A stretch of 64,000 nt of DNA from a virus. Its lineage: Duplodnaviria; Heunggongvirae; Uroviricota; Caudoviricetes. The position numbers were made by a program, and so were the translations under genes. Under the pieces are notes generated by a model. That model searched no databases. It saw only the letters and a list, made by a program, of their open reading frames with translations, and was not told the DNA's origin. The stretch is taken from positions 28,436 through 92,435 of IMG/VR virus record IMGVR_UViG_2609459856_000007. One strand, written 5' to 3'. Shown here piece after piece: positions 16,666-62,800 of this stretch (position 1 is its first letter; each line of letters begins with the position of its first letter).

Positions 16666-16717
16666 AAATTATGCATTGGCGCAATGTACGCGCCAATGCA
16701 TAAGTACAGTGTCAGCT

Positions 16718-17485
16718 TTATGCCGCGCTAACACTATGTTCATTCCTAACCACCCCAACCTTCACAAAAGGGCTGCCGTAGCTTGGTGGCTTCTTGATTA
16801 ATTTGCCTACATACAGTTTTCTAATATGCTCATCGGCTATTCTGCCAACAAATTCATAACGTTTTGTGTCGGGGCCAAGAGCTATATCCCTTGTAAAGTA
16901 CTGCTGAGAACCGGCTTTGACCCAGCATTCAATCTGATAAACTTCCATTATCAGGCCCCCATATGTAGCGTAGGCATATTTGAGATTCTCGTCTCTTGGA
17001 ACCTTTGCCCATACGCCACGCGTAGCTTCATATAATGCCAGAGCGGACATTCCTGACTTGTAGGTGCTGTTTAGCAGGAAGGCAAGACCGGCGTGCTCAG
17101 GAGCAATTTCAGTTTCCTCTTGCAGCACTAAGTGATGGTAGGCGTCCAGTGATATTCTGCCCATCATGGAACCACTTCCTCGTACCTTATTCGTAAGCTC
17201 TCCGACCCCCATAAGGTCGATGCATGTCGCCTCAACAAGTTTGGCTGTGGTTTCATCCATACCATGACGAAGAATATCTATGCCTAATTTTTTATTAGCC
17301 AAAAGTTCTTTGATCCGCATGGATTTGGGAGAGTCATCGGGATACTTGATGTGATCGAGACAACGAGTCGATTTGCCTTTTCCTATGTAAAACGGTCTTT
17401 TCATCTTGTCTTCTGTATCATAGAGACAGTAAACATAGTATTTAGCCTTATCCAATGATTTCGCGTATACCGATAAATCGTCCAT
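16718..17485 (-). CDS. GIY-YIG nuclease domain protein
   Basis: N-terminal YYVYCLYD...PFYIGKGKSTR with downstream Glu/Asn; 255 aa, unknown C-terminal domain. Confidence 0.7.
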   Translation of the reverse strand: MDDLSVYAKSLDKAKYYVYCLYDTEDKMKRPFYIGKGKSTRCLDHIKYPDDSPKSMRIKELLANKKLGIDILRHGMDETTAKLVEATCIDLMGVGELTNKVRGSGSMMGRISLDAYHHLVLQEETEIAPEHAGLAFLLNSTYKSGMSALALYEATRGVWAKVPRDENLKYAYATYGGLIMEVYQIECWVKAGSQQYFTRDIALGPDTKRYEFVGRIADEHIRKLYVGKLIKKPPSYGSPFVKVGVVRNEHSVSAA

Positions 17486-23212: not shown

Positions 23213-23408
23213 ACGAGAGAAGGAAACCCTGCGTGAAATCAGCAAGTGGAAGGAGTTCTACGCCAACTGGAAGCCGAAGACCAGAGCCAAACTGGAGCGC
23301 ATGAATCTTGTCGCCAACGTTTCTCCAAAGGGATGTATTGAGAACTATCAACTGACTGAAAAAGGTTATTTGTTGTTGCAGCAATTGACTGAGGCGGGGG
23401 CATACTGA
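23196..23408 (+). CDS. hypothetical protein
   Basis: 70-aa ORF in coupled series. Confidence 0.35.
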   Translation: MIMLSKREKETLREISKWKEFYANWKPKTRAKLERMNLVANVSPKGCIENYQLTEKGYLLLQQLTEAGAY

Positions 23409-23560
23409 TGATTCCATACATCATTTTATCATTCACTGGTGGCGTGGGCCTCGGCCTCGCAATCTGCCGCGCCCTGGTCCAGCAGGAACTGAAAACCAAA
23501 ACACTTCGTGTCGGTAAGCGTGTGTATCGGGTTGTTCACGAGACGGGAGTGCGAAAATGA
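23408..23560 (+). CDS. small membrane protein (50 aa)
   Basis: ATGA overlaps on both sides; MIPYIILSFTGGVGLGLAICRAL. Confidence 0.3.
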   Translation: MIPYIILSFTGGVGLGLAICRALVQQELKTKTLRVGKRVYRVVHETGVRK

Positions 23561-23862
23561 GCAATTTGACTTCCTTCGACTGGTGGCTGGCAACCTACCT
23601 TGTTGCGGCCGGCTTCGGATTTGCCTTTTACGTTGGTCAGTTAATCGTAAAGCTACTGCTGATCAGATTCCCCAGCCATAAACGCATAGACGACGGTCTG
23701 TGGCGTCTGGGGTCCCTGTTAGAGACGCATTACGGCGAACTCAAGGAAAACGAAACTATCACTATTCAAGCGAAGCGTTTTACCGCCATCATCACGAGAA
23801 CTCCGGAACAAAAGGGGAGCCTGATCAAAAAGATAGCAACTAAACGCATTACAGATAGATAA
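23557..23862 (+). CDS. membrane protein
   Basis: TM WWLATYLVAAGFGFAFYVGQLIVKLLLI. Confidence 0.4.
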   Translation: MSNLTSFDWWLATYLVAAGFGFAFYVGQLIVKLLLIRFPSHKRIDDGLWRLGSLLETHYGELKENETITIQAKRFTAIITRTPEQKGSLIKKIATKRITDR

Positions 23863-23880
23863 GTATTTACTTACTTATCT
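23857..23880. promoter_or_regulatory. TAAGTA-n-TACTTA palindromic motif
   Basis: agataagtatttacttacttatct. Confidence 0.35.
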
Positions 23881-24605
23881 AATATGTATAAGATCACTTT
23901 GTTTTCGTTGAGATGCGACTGTTTGAACGTTAAATATAACTGCAAACGAAGATGCATACCTGGCAGTAGCCTAAGAAGCCAAACACCAGCGAGGTCAGTT
24001 TCCAGCCTCGTTACCAAAATGGGACACACTGAGCGAGTGTGATTGCAGAACGCAGAATAGGGCATATTGCACCATCCATGCCCTATTCAATGAAGTAACA
24101 GAATGGGCGGTTGGTTTCATCATTCCATTCATCCATCCCGGTTTCAGCTGACCGTCCATTCTGTTACGTCATTTCCATTACTTATGTCGTTTATACTTGG
24201 GTTAAAAGCGGCGACGTAACCCGGCTGACTTGGTTAGTCAGCACATAACGTTGAGATCACTGATTTTTCTTAAAATCATACAGGCGATTCCACATAGCTG
24301 TAGCGACTGATCAATATGTTGGGTTGAACATTAATCGGTTCAGTGATCTCAACGTTGTGAAAGCAGGATTAATTAACCCTCTAGTGAAAACATTGTTGCC
24401 TTTATTGCCCCTGGCTTCACAACATGTATGATTCCATACATCCAATAAGATCGAAGAATCTAACGGCAATCAACCACCGAGAAAGATTCCAGATCTTCGC
24501 TCATATGAGCGAGCCACATGCCTCGTCTGGTACTAACGTAAAGTGCAAGTTGCGGGAAAGTTTCTGGCTGCCTGGTTGTCCATAAGCTAGTACCGCCGCG
24601 AAAAT

Positions 24606-24680
24606 GATGGTGTAGCTCAGTGGTAGAGCGGTTGACTGTTAATCAACTGGTCGGTGGTTCGAGTCCACCCACCATCGCCA
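24606..24680 (+). tRNA. tRNA-Asn (anticodon GTT), CCA encoded
   Basis: Cloverleaf: acceptor GATGGTG/CACCATC, D-arm GCTC..GAGC, anticodon stem GTTGA/TCAAC with loop CTGTTAA, T-arm GGTGG-TTCGAGT-CCACC, discriminator G, CCA. Confidence 0.9.
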
Positions 24681-24684
24681 ACAT

Positions 24685-24759
24685 AGCGCTGAACGGTTTG
24701 GATTCGCCACCACCGTCCGAACGAAAGACTCCGCAAATGTCGCCAGACCGTTCAGCGCT
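24685..24759 (+). other. large imperfect hairpin immediately 3' of tRNA-Asn
   Basis: AGCGCTGAACGGT...ACCGTTCAGCGCT (13-bp perfect arms, about 49-nt loop). Confidence 0.4.
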
Positions 24760-24873
24760 GTGATAGACACGGCAGACGTTTTTTAACCATTGCTTCTAAG
24801 CATCGTAGCAACACTTTTTTCAGCGCAAAATCCAAAGGGGCTTCGGCCCCTTTTTGCTATCTTATCTCTTGGT

Positions 24874-25653
24874 AATATGGGAAACAAACGTAAACAGGCG
24901 CGTCGCGCAGTCCGACAGGCACTGAAGTCAAAGCCACGTATCCAGGACTACGAAATTGATACAATCATCGTTAACGAGCAGGCTGTACACCCTACTCTGC
25001 CACCCACCAAGCCTAAACGCGACAAATCCCCCATCGAAGCGCTTAACGAGGCCCAGGCTCACTATCTTATCTCCCTAGATACCAAAGCTCTGACTTTCGC
25101 CACTGGTGAAGCAGGTTGCGGTAAGACTTACCTGGCTGCCACCGTCGCTGCGCAGCGTCTGTTGGATAAGGAAGTCGAGAAGATCATCGTTACGCGTCCC
25201 GTATTGCAAGCAGAAGAAGATCTGGGCTTCCTTCCGGGTGACATGAGCGAGAAGTTCGCTCCGTTCTTTCGTCCCGTTTATGACGTGCTAAAGAAGCGTT
25301 TGGGTGGCTCATTCCTTGAATATTGCTTAAAGCCAGAGGTGGCCAAAGTAGAAATTGCTCCCTTCGCTTATATGCGTGGGCGCACGTTCGAGAACGCAGT
25401 AGTCATTCTTGATGAGGCGCAAAACGTTACAGCGTCACAAATGAAAATGTTCCTGACCCGTATGGACGAGAATGTTACCGTCATTGTGAACGGTGATATT
25501 ACTCAATGTGATCTGCCCGGTAACGTTAAGTCTGGTCTGGAAGATGCTCTGGCTCGTTTTAGACCTTCCGCCCATGTTGGCCTTGTTGAGTTTACGACCG
25601 AAGACTGCGTGCGATCAGAACTATGCAAAATCGCACTGGAAGCCTATCAGTAA
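24874..25653 (+). CDS. phoH: PhoH-family ATPase
   Basis: Walker A GEAGCGKT, Walker B-like VVILDEAQ; ORF track start 24790 is upstream of likely ATG 24874. Confidence 0.8.
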   Translation, partial: NMGNKRKQARRAVRQALKSKPRIQDYEIDTIIVNEQAVHPTLPPTKPKRDKSPIEALNEAQAHYLISLDTKALTFATGEAGCGKTYLAATVAAQRLLDKEVEKIIVTRPVLQAEEDLGFLPGDMSEKFAPFFRPVYDVLKKRLGGSFLEYCLKPEVAKVEIAPFAYMRGRTFENAVVILDEAQNVTASQMKMFLTRMDENVTVIVNGDITQCDLPGNVKSGLEDALARFRPSAHVGLVEFTTEDCVRSELCKIALEAYQ

Positions 25654-25712
25654 GAGAGTTATACAGCCTCGATATCCAGCCATTTGGTGGCTCTCCCAGA
25701 TTAAACCCAACA

Positions 25713-25745
25713 AAAAGCCCCTTACGGGGCTTATTTATTTTTGGC
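25713..25745. terminator. bidirectional rho-independent terminator between convergent genes
   Basis: A-run, AAGCCCC-ttac-GGGGCTT, T-run. Confidence 0.65.
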
Positions 25746-26228
25746 TGTTACTAGAACGCGTCGTTTCTGTCTACCAAAACCTCTAGTAGTAACGACTCTG
25801 ACTTTCTGAGCGACATCACTTTCATTTACAGGAACCATCTGCCCCGTACTTGCATCATAAGTAAAAAGCTGCCCATCTCGAGGCTCATTCGGTGAGATCA
25901 ATGCCGCAGCTTTAACATTCATATGTGGTCTAAATGCGTACGCAACACCTGTAGCGGTTGCACTTTTGCGTCCCCGACCATCAGTAATCAAGCCAGTAAA
26001 CATTCCAAATTTTCTCGGTACAATTCGGCGACGAAATTTTGGTGTAGAATTTTCAATGATTGTTTTTATGGCAGAGGTAGTAGTGCGGGCAGGCTCCGCA
26101 TTTTCAGAAGAGGATGCGACTACTGTAGTTTGGCCCGCATCGATGGCTCGATTCATAGCATCGATACGTTCAGCCTGGCGAGCACGATATTGCTCAAGCC
26201 GTGTAGAATTTTGGCGTTCGTAAGACAT
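25731..26228 (-). CDS. hypothetical protein
   Basis: Strong RBS GAGGGGAAGG before ATG at 26228. Confidence 0.5.
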   Translation of the reverse strand: MSYERQNSTRLEQYRARQAERIDAMNRAIDAGQTTVVASSSENAEPARTTTSAIKTIIENSTPKFRRRIVPRKFGMFTGLITDGRGRKSATATGVAYAFRPHMNVKAAALISPNEPRDGQLFTYDASTGQMVPVNESDVAQKVRVVTTRGFGRQKRRVLVTAKNK

Positions 26229-26667
26229 TCGCCTTCCCCTCTGGTTCTAGGCCTACTTCAATAGTAAACCCTCTGTGTTTCTTCATGGTTACAAATCGAC
26301 AGTAAACGCCTGAAAGTTTTAGATCTGCTGGCGCAAATGTGTAAAGTGCCACGTTGAATGTATTATAGTGGTCAATAATTATTCTTTCAACGCACTTTAG
26401 GACTCTGGTTCCAGCGCCATTTGGCAGGTTTTCCATTCTTTTAAAATGAGTCTTTTCCTTCCAGTTCTGAACAGAATCGAACACTACGTCGTAATGGTTG
26501 CCGTATTCTGGGAAAATAAAATCCAGCGGAAACTCGGCAGCACAATCATACATGTTTGCTTTGGTGATTTGCGTAAAATACACACGGTATTCAACTCCGG
26601 CTACTGCAAATGTTGCTGAATGTGAACGCGGTTCGCCGTATGGAGCAAGCTCGTCAAAGTTAGTCAT
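26194..26667 (-). CDS. hypothetical protein
   Basis: Start uncertain (TTG 26712 or ATG 26667). Confidence 0.4.
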   Translation of the reverse strand: MTNFDELAPYGEPRSHSATFAVAGVEYRVYFTQITKANMYDCAAEFPLDFIFPEYGNHYDVVFDSVQNWKEKTHFKRMENLPNGAGTRVLKCVERIIIDHYNTFNVALYTFAPADLKLSGVYCRFVTMKKHRGFTIEVGLEPEGKANVLRTPKFYTA

Positions 26668-26802
26668 GATTAATGGGTTAATTGTCCTTTTTAAATATGA
26701 TACCAGATTCAATTAGACCGCGTAAAAACGCCTTACATTTGCTCCCCTTATATTAGCGGTAGATTTCACGCCGACGGCTACTTTTTTTAAAAATAGCGGC
26801 CT

Positions 26803-26837
26803 AAATGATTCCATACTTGTAAGGTATGGAATCATTT
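26803..26837. promoter_or_regulatory. perfect 14-bp inverted repeat with 7-bp spacer, candidate recombinase core site or operator
   Basis: AAATGATTCCATAC-ttgtaag-GTATGGAATCATTT, about 100 bp upstream of tyrosine recombinase gene. Confidence 0.45.
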
Positions 26838-26935
26838 TCAAAAACAGTCTATTTTACTGTTGATCATACAAAAACTGAGGCCTAACACACTGTTTATAAA
26901 TACAGTAAAAACAGGCTTCACTCAGTGAGTGGACT

Positions 26936-28039
26936 ATGAAAAACACTTTTGATAAAGCACGCGCAGCAGAAAACACCTCTAGAGAAGCCATCGAGTATCT
27001 CGAACGCGCTTCCGGTTTGTCAGCAGTGTCGACCACCAATTTCGACGGTGACATGTCGTTTTCTTCCGCATTCATGTTATTCACTCGCTTATCTTTGCTG
27101 ATAACGAGACGTCGACCTGAAATAGCTGTTCATTGTATTTTGATACATGTAATGCCGCATATCTGTGAAGTAAAAGTAAGTGACATTAGTAGGGTTTTAG
27201 TCAACCAGCTGGTGAACCCATTAATACTTGAGGGCAAGATCGTCCAGGGCAGACGTGTGTTCTCGCTGATGAAGCAGTTTCTCAGTTGGTGTGCATTTCA
27301 GGGCTTAATTGATACATCCCCATTGAACGATATGTCGCTTAACAGAGTAGCCGGTGGCGCGAAGCCCACGCCGCGCGAGCGCAAACTGACCGACGCAGAG
27401 GTCTGGGTCTTTTGGAATGTATGGGACTACTTCAACGTATGTGAGGGTACAAAGTGGGCGGCCAGATTATGCCTTGTAGCGGCCAGACGACCAGATGAAG
27501 TGCTCCGAGCTAAAAGATCAGAATTCAACCTCGAATATAATTTATGGAATCAAGGAACGAGGAATAAATCGGCTCGCCAGCACTCGTTACCATTAAGCCC
27601 GCTAATGCGCAAATGTGTTGAGGAGCTGATCAAATACGGAAAAGGCAGCCAGTGGCTTGTTCCTTCAAACAAGAAACAGGGGGAGGATGTGCCAATGTCT
27701 AAGGTGGCCATATCACAGGCGTTGAGAAGGATTTTAGAACGTCCAGAGTTGATGGAGCTTGAGCCATTTACCCCCCGAGATTTGCGTCGTACTGCGCGTA
27801 GTTACTTCCCCGCGTTAGGCATAAGTCAGGAGGTATCCCGCAAAATTATGAACCATAGTCTTGAGGGGATAGATCGAGTATACGATCGGCACGATTATAT
27901 AGACGAGATGCGAGACGCCTTAAACAGTTTTTCGGCGTACATCGCATCAATCGTAGAGAAACAGGATTTAGAGGAGATAGATCATAAGTTCAAGGGAGAT
28001 CGACTCGCTACTGAGCTAATCCGTGTAAATTTCTCATAG
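26936..28039 (+). CDS. tyrosine recombinase / phage integrase family protein
   Basis: C-terminal catalytic region with conserved Arg, LRRTA box, MNHS and RVYDRHDY. Confidence 0.75.
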   Translation: MKNTFDKARAAENTSREAIEYLERASGLSAVSTTNFDGDMSFSSAFMLFTRLSLLITRRRPEIAVHCILIHVMPHICEVKVSDISRVLVNQLVNPLILEGKIVQGRRVFSLMKQFLSWCAFQGLIDTSPLNDMSLNRVAGGAKPTPRERKLTDAEVWVFWNVWDYFNVCEGTKWAARLCLVAARRPDEVLRAKRSEFNLEYNLWNQGTRNKSARQHSLPLSPLMRKCVEELIKYGKGSQWLVPSNKKQGEDVPMSKVAISQALRRILERPELMELEPFTPRDLRRTARSYFPALGISQEVSRKIMNHSLEGIDRVYDRHDYIDEMRDALNSFSAYIASIVEKQDLEEIDHKFKGDRLATELIRVNFS

Positions 28040-28423
28040 CGACTTGATTGCCTCAACAACCCGCTCCGACGCACCACGTTGGTCACCGAAACGTCGACGG
28101 AAGGCTTCCAGAACTAGTTTTTCATCTTTAGTCAGAGGGGCTGTGCCTTCGTCGCGAAAAAACGCTAACAGCTCTGGATGACGCTCTTCCAGCACCATTA
28201 GCATCAATCGGACCGAATCGGCATCCAATGCTTTAGCCAACGCTCTGACCTTGTCGATCGGAAGCGGGATTTTGCCGCTCTTGATAAGTGAAAGATTGTT
28301 AGGATTTTTATAGCCTGCTTCTTTCGCGATGGTCGCCTGGCTTTTCGGAGAAATCGCGATTAAAGCGTCAATGTAAGCAGCGTAGCGACCTACTTTAGCT
28401 TCTGTTATTTCGTTGGTAGCCAT
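28034..28423 (-). CDS. helix-turn-helix transcriptional regulator (XRE-like), possible repressor
   Basis: ATIAKEAGYKNPNNLSLIKSGK HTH; divergent from small ORF 28680. Confidence 0.6.
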   Translation of the reverse strand: MATNEITEAKVGRYAAYIDALIAISPKSQATIAKEAGYKNPNNLSLIKSGKIPLPIDKVRALAKALDADSVRLMLMVLEERHPELLAFFRDEGTAPLTKDEKLVLEAFRRRFGDQRGASERVVEAIKSL

Positions 28424-28455
28424 AATTATCAACCTGCGTGTTTTGATTTTATATG

Positions 28456-28469
28456 GTAAGTGCTTACTG
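28456..28469. promoter_or_regulatory. TAAGTG-CTTAC palindromic motif upstream of HTH gene
   Basis: ggtaagtgcttact. Confidence 0.35.
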
Positions 28470-28679
28470 ATATTACATCAAAGGTTAGTGTTGTAAAGAC
28501 TTATCTATTTTTTTTCGTAGAGTTATTGACCACAAAAGGCTTAATTAATAGACAACTATCTAAAAAACAACTCATTTAAGAACTTAAAACTAAGTTGTAT
28601 TTGATATATAAGTATTCCGTATTGATACAATAGGTAGTAGTATTGCAAGGCATTTACGTGTTCAGTTGGATGATATGAA

Positions 28680-28892: not shown

Positions 28893-29004
28893 CACCCCCC
28901 TCCCATCCTCTCTAGCGCCTGTACGAACAGATTAGATGCCTGTTCGTACAGTGATAAATTACGCACATCAGAAAACAAATTGTTTTAACAACAAGGAAAT
29001 TCTA

Positions 29005-46529: not shown

Positions 46530-46573
46530 TGATTTTTATGCGCAGCTGGACGTAAACTCCTCTTCAGACCTAA

Positions 46574-46607
46574 TAACTTCGTATAGCATACATTATACGA
46601 AGTTATC
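46574..46607. other. loxP: loxP site-specific recombination site
   Basis: Exact ATAACTTCGTATA-GCATACAT-TATACGAAGTTAT (13-bp inverted arms, 8-bp spacer). Confidence 0.97.
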
Positions 46608-47016: not shown

Positions 47017-48048
47017 ATGTCCAATTTACTGACCGTACACCAAAATTTGCCTGCATTACCGGTCGATGCAACGAGTGATGAGGTTCGCAAGAATCTGATG
47101 GACATGTTCAGGGATCGCCAGGCGTTTTCTGAGCATACCTGGAAAATGCTTCTGTCCGTTTGCCGGTCGTGGGCGGCATGGTGCAAGTTGAATAACCGGA
47201 AATGGTTTCCCGCAGAACCTGAAGATGTTCGCGATTATCTTCTATATCTTCAGGCGCGCGGTCTGGCAGTAAAAACTATCCAGCAACATTTGGGCCAGCT
47301 AAACATGCTTCATCGTCGGTCCGGGCTGCCACGACCAAGTGACAGCAACGCTGTTTCACTGGTCATGCGGCGGATCCGAAAAGAAAACGTTGATGCCGGT
47401 GAACGTGCAAAACAGGCACTAGCGTTCGAACGCACTGATTTCGACCAGGTTCGTTCACTCATGGAAAATAGCGATCGCTGCCAGGATATACGTAATCTGG
47501 CATTTCTGGGGATTGCTTATAACACCCTGTTACGTATAGCCGAAATTGCCAGGATCAGGGTTAAAGATATCTCACGTACTGACGGTGGGAGAATGTTAAT
47601 CCATATTGGCAGAACGAAAACGCTGGTTAGCACCGCAGGTGTAGAGAAGGCACTTAGCCTGGGGGTAACTAAACTGGTCGAGCGATGGATTTCTGTCTCT
47701 GGTGTGGCTGATGATCCGAATAACTACTTGTTTTGCCGGGTCAGAAAAAATGGTGTTGCCTCGCCATCATCCACCAGCCAGCTATCAACTCGCGCCCTGG
47801 AAGGGATTTTTGAAGCAACTCACCGATTGATTTACGGGGCTAAGGATGACTCTGGTCAGAGGTACCTGGCCTGGTCTGGACACAGTGCCCGTGTCGGAGC
47901 CGCGCGAGATATGGCCCGCGCCGGAGTTTCAATACCGGAGATCATGCAAGCTGGTGGCTGGACCAACGTAAATATTGTCATGAACTATATCCGTAATCTG
48001 GATAGTGAAACGGGGGCAATGGTGCGCCTGCTGGAAGATGGTGATTAG
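47017..48048 (+). CDS. cre: Cre tyrosine recombinase
   Basis: 343 aa; MSNLLTVHQNLPALPVDATSDEVRKNLMDMFRDRQAFSEHTWKMLLSVCRSWAAWCK... matches P1 Cre. Confidence 0.97.
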   Translation: MSNLLTVHQNLPALPVDATSDEVRKNLMDMFRDRQAFSEHTWKMLLSVCRSWAAWCKLNNRKWFPAEPEDVRDYLLYLQARGLAVKTIQQHLGQLNMLHRRSGLPRPSDSNAVSLVMRRIRKENVDAGERAKQALAFERTDFDQVRSLMENSDRCQDIRNLAFLGIAYNTLLRIAEIARIRVKDISRTDGGRMLIHIGRTKTLVSTAGVEKALSLGVTKLVERWISVSGVADDPNNYLFCRVRKNGVASPSSTSQLSTRALEGIFEATHRLIYGAKDDSGQRYLAWSGHSARVGAARDMARAGVSIPEIMQAGGWTNVNIVMNYIRNLDSETGAMVRLLEDGD

Positions 48049-59849: not shown

Positions 59850-62800
59850 TCAGAAACGATATTCCACACTCAACATGGCAGATGTATTATGGTATCCATG
59901 TTCTCCAAGTTGAATGCCTGCATCAGCCCGGAATGCTACTTCTGGTGTTATCATTCCCACAACACCACCATTTATTTCTCCGATATCACGCGCACCATCC
60001 TGGTATATACTTACACCATTCATACTGGTGCCGAAAACACGACTATTGTGCAACCAGTGTGCCTCCACAAATGGTCTGAACGGAACCGCATACCGCGTAT
60101 TTTTACCGTTTTTGCTGGTAAGCCATGTTCTTGCTCCCAGGCGGGTGAGAATATTTCCGTTACCGGTATTTTCAATACTGGTTCCGTTACTTTCATGATA
60201 TTTGTCTGATTTTACATTCATCCGGACAACCTGAAGCTGCGGCTGAACATACCATTCATGACTTCCCTTGTAATTGTCGGTAAACTCTCCAGCCTTCCAT
60301 GAATATCCTGCTTCCAGAGATACCGTAAACCCTTTTGACTTCCATGACTCAGCAGGCAGCCGTTCTCCATTTATATGATTATCAAACCAGCTGTATTGCA
60401 GCCAGCTATCAAGATAAGAACCATTGTGTGTTTCATCATTGGCATACCATGTTGCATAAAGACCCGCTGTGTATCCATTCATTCTTCCTTCCGAATGGTA
60501 TCCGGTGCTCAGGGCATTCGTACTGTTATTATTATGACCATAGCCAGCCATCATACCTGTATGCCAGCGATCGGTACCATTCAGGCTCCACTGAGCTATA
60601 TCTCCCCCTATTAACACAACGTAGCTATTCCCCCGGGTTCTCAGCTGACTACTGTTGTCACGCCAGCGATTATGTTTTCCTTTATTATACATCCAGATAC
60701 CTGCTTCATTTTCTTCTCCTGTCATGTGGCTGATATACAACTCCTGTCCCTGTCGTTCATACAGATTCGTTACAAACAGATTATTTGCAGCAGCAATACT
60801 GGCAACATAGCTACCTGCCTCAGGACGCAAATTATTATCATGGCTTTCCGGTACAGCTTCAGGTTGTGGTACAGGAATGTCTTTTCTGCTAATCAGATAC
60901 CAGTTAGTGCTGTTAATCCCCTGACCACGTTTCAGTATGTAATCATAAGCTCCGGCTGTAATACGTTCCGTCTGAATGAATTCAGCATTATCAGCATTGC
61001 CACTGACGTGAATCACTTCAATCCCATTAAGTGTCTCTGCACCAGTACCACCGGCCTGAGTAACAGCGACACGGGTACGGCCACTGGCATTACCTTTAAT
61101 CACCAGACGATCTGTTTTCGAATTGTCACCACCTGTTTCTGTCTGGAGGAGAATAAGTCCATTTCTGCCAGTGTAATTCCCTCCGACAGTCAGTATATTA
61201 CCCGGCATATATGTAGTGAGATCGACTATACCACTATTGCTCAGATTTCCTGCAACGCCCCCAAACCCGGAGAGTTTGCCCTGCTCTTCAACAATGACCT
61301 GGTTACTGCCGAGCATCACCGGTGAATCTGCGTTCCCCAGTATCACTGTCCCCTGAATAATATCTGTCATCCCGGTCCATTTTGCGTTATCGCTAATGTT
61401 CAGTGCACCTGCTCCCGTCTTGCGAACATTACCATAACCACTGATATTGTTGGTAAGCTGCCATGCTGATGTACTGTTCAGAGTTAATGTGCCATAGTTA
61501 TCAACAAAGGCTGTCCCCAGATTATCAGCCGTGGATACAGCCAAATGAGCCCCCTTATTCACGGTAAAAACACCGGAAAAATTACGATTATTACCCGTTA
61601 TATCAAGCATTCCCCCATTTATGTTCAGAGAACCATCCCCTGCAATAGTACCTGCAGATTCTCCTCCATTATTCAGTATCAGACTTCCGCCATGAATGTT
61701 CAGCACAGAGCCTGCAGCCGTCAGTAGTTTGCTTATTGTCTGAGGATACCCATTCATATCCAGTTCTGCGCCACGGGATAAATATAAATACTCAGTCCGA
61801 CCAAGAGCATCAGGTGCAGCAAGAATTAATACGCCAGATTTAACCTCTGTATTTCCTGTATAATTGTTTGTTGCAGAAAGTATAAGAGTACCATTACCTG
61901 ATTTTGTCAGACTTTTGCCGTCCCAGCCATCATATAATAAAGGTGAAAGATTATCGGAAAGAGAAACGCCTATGTTCAGAGTGGCATCTTTTTCTATATT
62001 AAAGGTTCCATATCCCATCCCTTTTGTATTATTCCATCTCAGCATGGATATCAGTTTGTTATCGTCGTCATTTAAAGACGTATAAACATAACTTTCAGCA
62101 CCTTCTGTCAGTAATACATTGTATTGTACAATGTGACTATTATCAGCGATCGAGATACCTGTGTCTGACGACAATAATGTGTAATAGTCCTGAGTCCAGT
62201 TCTTAATTGATGTGTCTATATTAAGCCATGAATCACTTTTTAATGTAATAGTATTTGCGTGAACATTAGCATTTCCTACAGACAGGTTCATAGATGCGTC
62301 TTCATCAATACTTATATTTCCGTTAAAAATGGAGTTCTTGCCTGACAGATAAACAGATGAGCCATTCCCAATCATTAGCCCACCATTAATTGCTGTTGCG
62401 TTATTGATGTTTTTAATAATTAATTCATTTGTACCATTAACAGGTATACTAGCTAGTTTAATATCACCATTAATCACAGAATCTGAATAAATATCTAATG
62501 AATTATACCCGCCAGAAAAAATCATTGATGTATTATAAGCATCTTTTTGGCTATTATATAATCCTGAAAGATTACCATGATTATTAATATGGATATCTTC
62601 TCCATAAACAGAGCAACCACCGTCGGGGCCATATCCCCCCTGAACAATACCGTTATTATTCAAAGTGATTTGATTTCCAGAAATAGCATCTCCCCCTTGT
62701 TTTATTCCATATCCTCCAGATATCATGTTGTCGTTAGTAATGAAAAGATTACTACCATTAATACCATCACCACCGTTTACGCCATTACCGCCCAATATTC

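Follow-up and report, generated by a model that had tools for sequence, protein, structure and literature searches.

Which DNA does the integrase-like tyrosine recombinase of an SSU5-type phage-plasmid act upon, and to what end? The question is raised by a 64,000-nucleotide stretch of viral DNA (IMG/VR record IMGVR_UViG_2609459856_000007, positions 28,436 to 92,435; hereafter "the window", the numbering of which is used throughout), where a short perfect palindrome stands upstream of an open reading frame (ORF), int, encoding a tyrosine recombinase. We consider it probable (at roughly 0.7) that this 35-bp palindrome serves the adjacent recombinase as its core site for recombination, the two forming a Cre/loxP-like system for multimer resolution.

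A perfect palindrome upstream of int

An earlier, sequence-only reading of the window had reported a perfect 14-bp inverted repeat with a 7-bp spacer, and direct reading of positions 26803-26837 confirmed it: the segment reads cct-AAATGATTCCATAC-ttgtaag-GTATGGAATCATTT-tc, 35 bp in total. The repeat had been placed about 100 bp upstream of a tyrosine recombinase gene; the distance from its right arm to the ATG (26936) of the 367-codon int ORF is 99 bp, in a promoter-proximal intergenic setting. The geometry, 14 + 7 + 14, is that of a simple recombinase site (arms of about 11-14 bp, spacer of 6-8 bp). The window contains, with loxP included, only four perfect inverted repeats whose arms reach 12 bp or more around a spacer no longer than 12 bp, vs 0-1 in composition-matched shuffles. 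The claimed recurrence of the arm sequence at 23408 and 24428 was borne out as well. Scanning the window with the 12-mer ATGATTCCATAC returned exact copies at 23408(+), 24428(+), 26805(+) and 26824(-), and a single match with one mismatch at 60935(-). These five matches at one mismatch or fewer compare with 0.34 expected, and none of 100 shuffles reached five.

The window is a mosaic in which a phage-plasmid backbone of the SSU5/pHCM2/Cyrano type is joined to P1-like DNA. The P1-like part contains a wild-type loxP (46573-46606), a 343-amino-acid cre ORF (47017-48048) and neighbouring P1 genes. The element thus has two recombinase-site candidates, and the description of the palindrome as a recombination system "besides Cre/loxP" is apt.

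The palindrome is inherited with the recombinase gene

About 100 homologous loci were scanned. An inverted repeat with a 7-bp spacer is present upstream of int in all of them, and the repeat is perfect except for one mismatch in a single arm at one locus. Close loci, defined by Int proteins 80-100% identical, number about 90 and derive from E. coli, Citrobacter, a Klebsiella phage, Yersinia pestis (a 108-kb contig), Kluyvera, Buttiauxella and IMG/VR contigs. In every one of these, exact ATGATTCCATAC arms enclose a 7-bp spacer some 100 bp ahead of int, and flanks and spacer sequences differ.

In more distant relatives, the arms change and both arms alter in step. A Nissabacter-type contig (Int 62% identical) has CAATGATTCCATAC-TTATATA, and a Klebsiella lineage (Int about 57% identical) has TGTGATTCCATAC-TATATAA, with GTGATTCCATAC in both arms. 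In phage-plasmids of Xenorhabdus and Providencia (Int 43% identical in each), the sequences are ATGTGACTCCAGAC-GTAGTTA and ATGACTCCAGAC-TACATAG, respectively; these two genera share with Pantoea, Rahnella and Erwinia (Int about 43-46%) the sequence TGACTCCAGAC in both arms around a 7-bp spacer. Overall, the arms vary between TGATTCCATAC, a single G variant and TGACTCCAGAC. They fall into three classes (ATGATTCCATAC, GTGATTCCATAC and TGACTCCAGAC), each of them symmetric and each tracking the divergence of Int.

The most telling loci are on large replicons. Int homologues (45-46%) occur on replicons of 508 kb in Pantoea vagans and 723 kb in Rahnella, and on a 437-kb contig in Erwinia, which are presumably plasmids (CP028350.1 is among the records); loci elsewhere in the set are on contigs of about 100-115 kb or in the same 437-723-kb range. 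On the Pantoea, Rahnella and Erwinia replicons, the homologue sits among transport and metabolic genes, without a phage module and without a homologous XRE neighbour, and TGACTCCAGAC-N7-GTCTGGAGTCA is found 30-150 bp upstream of it. As the palindrome is kept upstream of int even on non-phage, repressor-free replicons, the recombinase gene is its only constant partner. The loxP-like architecture proposed earlier thus gains substance: a simple tyrosine-recombinase core geometry, inherited together with its gene, the arms of which co-vary as the recombinase diverges.

The spacer keeps its length and flips its orientation

The spacer is 7 bp long in all of the approximately 100 loci, and its sequence differs by lineage. 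Most lineages fit the pattern CTANNAN, read in one direction or the other with respect to int. Two flips to the exact reverse complement were found (CTATTAA/TTAATAG and TAATTAC/GTAATTA), and reverse complements are seen when loci L011 and L031 are compared with L009, L103 with L102 and L105, and L098 with L106. Since exact reverse complements occur in related lineages, the centre of the palindrome must flip recurrently between fixed arms. Such flips would be neutral for a simple site without fixed flanking accessory sequences, and could arise by template switching between the arms. Because spacer orientation is not fixed relative to the flanks, no requirement for accessory sequences is apparent.

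Int resembles a lambda/P4-type integrase without an arm-binding domain

Int matches the Pfam family PF00589 (Phage_integrase) over residues 173-319 with 36.2 bits (cut-off 27.1), and in addition shows a weak Pfam match to a central domain. In 37 homologues, R185, K211, R284 and Y316 are invariant and H307 is present in at least 90%, the catalytic roles of these residues being assigned by spacing and motifs rather than by structural superposition. The AlphaFold (AF2) model (mean predicted local distance difference test, pLDDT, 85.7) consists of an all-helical N-terminal domain and a catalytic domain. Its best Foldseek matches are lambda Int on core DNA, Tn1549 Int, XerH and IntI; DNA-bound phi3T SroF is also among the matches. 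Neither PF13356 nor any other N-terminal DNA-binding family was matched in Pfam, and the model contains no arm-binding domain. The next relatives in sequence (about 30% identity, P4-like) have the PF13356 arm-binding domain, which the Int clade lacks. Int therefore seems to be a P4/lambda-type integrase pared down to the two domains of a simple recombinase. Cre is a weak fold match only (Foldseek E=8.6e-3, template modelling score, TM, 0.50), below lambda Int, and a phmmer search against all PDB chain sequences returned nothing at E<=0.01, so there is no recognisable homology to Cre.

Multimer resolution is favoured over integration

The sequence-only reading had left the role of the system between dimer resolution and integration. 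Within 5,426 complete E. coli genomes, int is found in 236, always on a plasmid, never in the chromosome and always as one copy per genome; the chromosomal scan covers complete E. coli genomes, and in other genera, whose chromosomes were not scanned systematically, a copy may now and then be integrated or cointegrated. Because these copies are all plasmid-borne and single, and because the enzyme is without the arm-binding domain of its relatives, the first of the two roles is favoured, and the second, with no chromosomal copy, disfavoured. A role in Cre/loxP-like multimer resolution, possibly also cyclisation, is indicated by the symmetry of the arms, by the absence of an arm-binding domain and by the occurrence of the pair on large non-phage replicons.

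We propose the following mechanism. One Int monomer would bind each 12-14-bp arm, two palindromes would synapse as a tetramer, and strands would be exchanged across the 7-bp spacer, as in Cre/loxP. In a plasmid dimer, two directly repeated sites would recombine to give monomers, so that the low-copy phage-plasmid could be partitioned. After infection, the system may also assist in closing terminally redundant phage DNA into a circle, a task that Cre performs for P1. Binding by Int, the positions of cleavage and the role in multimer resolution are all inferred from comparative genomics.

Some observations weigh against this proposal or are at least awkward for it. No natural recombination product (dimer, cointegrate or split site) was found among the relatives examined. 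Similarity between relatives does break sharply at the left edge of the palindrome, but this is not diagnostic, since a conserved backbone starting at that point explains it equally well; and at one locus (L021) the crossover is found on the right-hand side of the palindrome, suggesting that the exchange was homologous and not site-specific. The position of the first catalytic His in Int is an Arg (R281). Finally, a simple resolution site offers no reason for the conserved half-sites several kb away, which are described below.

Solitary half-sites converge on the palindrome

The dispersed motif of the sequence-only reading turned out to be real and more specific than claimed: the conserved unit is a 15-mer, ATGATTCCATACATC, present as solitary half-sites and conserved to the base even within coding sequence. 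Relatives share one set of half-sites, comprising A, B (about 1 kb downstream of A), D and a doubtful E. In relatives, half-site D is on the opposite strand inside dnaE, about 6.1 kb to the right of the palindrome (27002-27016 in L002, 14071-14085 in L003), where it spells R/G-C-M-E-S in a variable loop. The window has A and B, a degenerate E, and has lost D along with the SSU5-like dnaE. Half-site E is doubtful because the same bases encode a conserved W-N-Q. Across distinct sequence contexts, the 12-mer is unchanged in 31/32 for A, 28/28 for B and 36/36 for D, with varying flanks. As to spacing, A-B measures about 1.0-1.3 kb and palindrome-D about 6.0-6.3 kb in all but one locus; B-palindrome ranges from 1.2 to 6.8 kb.

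The Klebsiella G-variant lineage is informative about what is being conserved. Half-site B has there the same G as the palindrome arms, the ORF at half-site A still starts (M)IPYI with other synonymous bases, and DnaE is without the CMES residues, having a different peptide at that place. The constraint in the other lineages therefore acts on the DNA. As a side observation, a putative DNA-binding site at half-site D appears to dictate part of the sequence of the polymerase DnaE.

The sequence-only reading had proposed scanning the replicon for further copies. Two complete genomes (Cyrano, 108 kb; Klebsiella phage GArcari-2022a, 110 kb) contain none: all half-sites are within 9-13 kb around int and all are oriented towards the palindrome. 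The TGACTCCAGAC clade and the large plasmids have the palindrome and no satellite half-sites. No second, degenerate arm was found beside the half-sites. Our best guess is that each half-site would bind one extra monomer of the same recombinase, for a regulatory or architectural purpose.

A more elaborate possibility, which we put forward tentatively and regard as rather unlikely, is that in the E. coli/Klebsiella/Yersinia branch a catalytically intact resolvase has gained a second job. The 3-4 half-sites would recruit monomers into a long-range complex over the replication and immunity region, which might control early or replication genes or impose a topological filter or directionality on the Cre-like reaction. 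Such a system would be an intermediate towards the SPbeta-like master repressors derived from recombinases.

Alternative explanations of the palindrome

The alternative that fares best is that the palindrome and its solitary copies are binding sites of an integrase-fold protein acting mainly as a transcriptional regulator, perhaps through autorepression and control of the region of the replication genes, with little or no recombination. There is a precedent in MrpR and SroF of the phages SPbeta and phi3T, proteins of tyrosine-recombinase fold that bind a repeated element as master repressors and have lost catalysis (PMC10516654; bioRxiv 10.1101/2025.11.27.690993), and DNA-bound phi3T SroF is one of the structural matches of the Int model. 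The base-level conservation of the half-sites around int and nowhere else in the two complete genomes, the co-variation of half-site B with the palindrome arms and the position of the palindrome 22 bp upstream of a putative int promoter would all suit such a regulator. Yet R185, K211, R284 and Y316 are invariant in the 37 homologues and H307 nearly so, whereas MrpR and SroF have lost catalysis; moreover, the TGACTCCAGAC clade and the large plasmids keep the palindrome without solitary copies, and no conserved promoter lies over half-sites A or B. We therefore think a mainly regulatory protein unlikely. A dual role is possible, so regulation is only a partial rival to multimer resolution.

Less likely still is that the palindrome is the attP core for chromosomal integration of the phage-plasmid. 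In its favour are the integrase annotation of the protein, the P4-type integrases as nearest sequence relatives beyond the clade and lambda Int as the closest structural match; the E. coli copies, however, include no chromosomal one (0/236), and the same gene-site pair is found on 437-723-kb non-phage replicons. What would accompany an integrative attP/Int pair, namely hybrid att flanks (looked for in complete E. coli genomes), an arm-binding domain and arm-type sites distinct from the core, was not found, and perfect symmetry is typical of simple resolution or inversion systems rather than of attP.

The gene adjoining int at its 3' side encodes an XRE-type repressor, and the motif is both dispersed and asymmetric; it could accordingly be the operator of that repressor, dispersed in the manner of P1 C1 operators. 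The Cyrano homologue is treated as a putative master repressor and is expressed in lysogens (PMC9928086). We nevertheless judge this explanation very improbable. The control region of the repressor itself (28433-28679) is without the motif and has different, GTTGT repeats, and a motif copy in that region and co-occurrence with the repressor are both missing: the palindrome persists upstream of int on replicons that lack such a repressor. Furthermore, a small helix-turn-helix dimer would not typically bind arms that are 12 bp long and have their centres 19 bp from one another.

Finally, it is scarcely credible that the palindrome acts as a transcription terminator or an RNA hairpin and that the repeats form a shared translation-initiation region, the latter being the alternative that the sequence-only reading had itself raised against recombination. 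The palindrome can fold as a 14-bp hairpin and the 23408 copy includes a real start codon. However, a scan for terminator-like sites made no call, relatives do not keep a T-run behind the AT-rich stem, and only the 23408 copy starts an ORF, the 24428 copy and the palindrome-arm hit running into stops after 5-6 codons and the copies of relatives being antisense in dnaE and int.

Several other candidates for the motif were tried and rejected. As a sigma-70 promoter element it fails, since overlaps with A and B are weak in the window, no more frequent than in shuffles, and absent in Cyrano. A genome-wide dispersed operator like that of P1 C1 does not fit copies confined to 9-13 kb around int in two complete genomes. 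For a cassette boundary or integron-like capture site, the breakpoints were not diagnostic: those on the left fall at the tRNA terminator (24861/24874) rather than at half-site B, and the sharp one on the right, at the palindrome, can equally be explained as the start of the backbone. Shufflon-like inversion between opposed half-sites does not fit a single gene order in all loci and half-site "spacers" that are not consistently identical. A telomere-resolution site is at odds with the circularity of those records for which a topology is shown, with a spacer that is not palindromic and with a protein unlike the protelomerases. We know of no convincing match of the motif to host-factor sites (Fur, ArgR, IHF, Ter, dif).

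Genomic context of the int locus

Local blastn comparison with Cyrano and two E. coli plasmids places the Cyrano-like backbone at about 264 to 31991, ending just before dnaE; its close relatives are typed as IncFIB. Large deletions set the backbone apart from that of Cyrano; one of them, between 8873 and 9165, has removed the majority of the tail genes. Genes around int are arranged as follows: ligase, small ORFs, tRNA-Asn, variable cargo (phoH and two leftward ORFs), the palindrome and int, followed on the 3' side by the convergent XRE-like repressor gene, a 70-amino-acid ORF, and genes for CobT-like and AAA proteins. The coordinates of the features at the locus are collected in Table 1.

Table 1 Features of the int locus (window coordinates)
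Feature	Coordinates	Strand	Description
Half-site A	23408-23422	+	ATGATTCCATACATC; overlaps the start codon of a 50-amino-acid ORF (MIPYI...)
Half-site B	24428-24442	+	ATGATTCCATACATC; intergenic, 178 bp upstream of tRNA-Asn (24606-24680)
Palindrome, left arm	26803-26816	+	AAATGATTCCATAC; inner 12 bp unchanged in all close relatives
Palindrome, spacer	26817-26823	.	TTGTAAG, 7 bp, AT-rich; presumed strand-exchange region
Palindrome, right arm	26824-26837	+	GTATGGAATCATTT, exact reverse complement of the left arm
Putative int promoter	26860-26888	+	TTGATC-17 bp-TAACAC; begins 22 bp past the palindrome; predicted from conserved sequence only
Tyrosine recombinase gene int	26936-28039	+	367 amino acids; R185, K211, R284, H307, Y316 conserved
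Half-site E (degenerate, inside int)	27542-27553	-	TTGATTCCATAA, 2 mismatches; 1 mismatch in many relatives
XRE-type prophage repressor gene	28034-28432	-	Abuts int

The second hexamer of the putative int promoter is TAATAT in most relatives; a simple scan made no call at 26860-26888 in the window. The Cyrano gene adjoining the palindrome is reported at 723-fold above background in lysogens (PMC9928086).

Between the tRNA-Asn terminator and the palindrome (24861-26802, with its counterpart in L001-L093), the cargo is hypervariable; in relatives, the wider interval from half-site B to the palindrome contains tRNAs, phoH, glutaredoxin, proteins resembling Ail/Lom and Acb2/Tad1, and others. On the strand opposite the 3' end of phoH, 25455-25650 (-) gives a sub-threshold Rfam match to the Yersinia antisense sRNA Ysr251 (54 bits, gathering threshold 100). 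The non-coding segments 23860-24600 and 24682-24762 contain long stem-loops, at 24089-24173 (23-bp arms), 24244-24359 (20-bp arms) and, after the tRNA, 24682-24762 (20-bp arms), with sub-threshold Rfam matches only.

To the right of int, the AT-rich segment 28433-28679 between the XRE-like repressor gene and the divergent 70-amino-acid ORF contains four repeats centred on GTTGT/ACAAC, in both orientations; these are candidate operators of the XRE repressor, unrelated to the recombinase motif. Downstream of the 70-amino-acid ORF, a perfect 12-bp inverted repeat, CTGTACGAACAG-N9-CTGTTCGTACAG, is found at 28919-28951. Elsewhere in the backbone, 16669-16703 is a second perfect palindrome of 14 + 7 + 14 bp, TTATGCATTGGCGC-AATGTAC-GCGCCAATGCATAA, located between an operon of parA and a 120-amino-acid ORF and a leftward GIY-YIG nuclease-like ORF (16718-17485). 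Cyrano is without this palindrome, a different hairpin taking its place there. Candidate roles for the palindrome are those of a centromere, a terminator or a site associated with the nuclease.

Significance

Phage-plasmids of the SSU5/pHCM2 type are common, as the 236 E. coli genomes and the Yersinia pestis contig illustrate, and elements of this type also bear resistance genes (PMC9600943). Literature searches with the arm sequences found no relevant paper; those on the SSU5, pHCM2 or pMT1 integrase or on multimer resolution found general statements only, and in the library searched no paper naming the target of the conserved SSU5-like "integrase" was found. The 35-bp candidate site offers a direct handle on how these low-copy elements stay monomeric. 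The arm specificities TGATTCCATAC and TGACTCCAGAC found among the loci, together with enzymes that are not Cre-type, provide candidate orthogonal recombinase-site pairs for genome engineering. A specialist may be surprised that the base-level conservation of the half-sites extends to synonymous positions in a start codon and in dnaE, which shows that a constraint on the DNA shapes protein sequence.

Comparison with known systems

MrpR (YopR)/SroF and their element SPBRE resemble the present system in that a temperate phage encodes an integrase-fold protein together with a short element repeated at several places in its genome. Here, however, the catalytic residues are conserved, and there are only 3-4 repeats, which do not extend beyond about 13 kb from the gene and are missing in half of the clade.

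Lambda- and P4-type integrases are the closest in structure (lambda Int on COC' core DNA, E=5.6e-7) and in sequence (about 30%, P4-like), and the lambda overlap is 7 bp long, equal to the spacer here. In contrast to these integrases, Int has no N-terminal arm-binding domain, the locus has no differing arm-type sites, the core is perfectly symmetric and there is no chromosomal int copy in complete E. coli genomes.

With the Xer systems (XerCD/dif, cer and psi; XerH/difH), the locus shares the resolution of replicon dimers (presumed here) and a short inverted repeat with a 6-8-bp spacer, and XerH is among the structural matches of Int. It differs from them in having a single plasmid-encoded recombinase, identical arms and no apparent need for accessory sequences; to our knowledge, the arm sequence is also unlike dif.

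In ResD/rfsF of the F plasmid, a plasmid tyrosine recombinase has its resolution site just upstream of its own gene, and ResD is reported to act both as resolvase and as repressor of its own operon. The likeness is offered as an analogy only, leaving aside sequence and rfsF geometry.

Another parallel is Cre/loxP of P1. In both cases, a phage-plasmid encodes a tyrosine recombinase made of core-binding and catalytic domains only; the target is about 34-35 bp long, with two perfect inverted arms and an asymmetric spacer, at most a few hundred bp upstream of the gene; and the presumed role is multimer resolution and cyclisation. The differences are that loxP is 13 + 8 + 13 whereas the arms here are 12-14 bp and the spacer 7 bp, that Int has no sequence-level similarity to Cre and appears to descend from P4/lambda-type integrases, and that conserved satellite half-sites are found here and not in Cre/loxP. 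Judged from its sequence, the system would thus work like Cre/loxP yet stand outside the Cre-type subfamily (Cre, Dre, VCre, Vika): it represents a familiar kind of system in a form not previously described, with satellite half-sites as its unusual feature.

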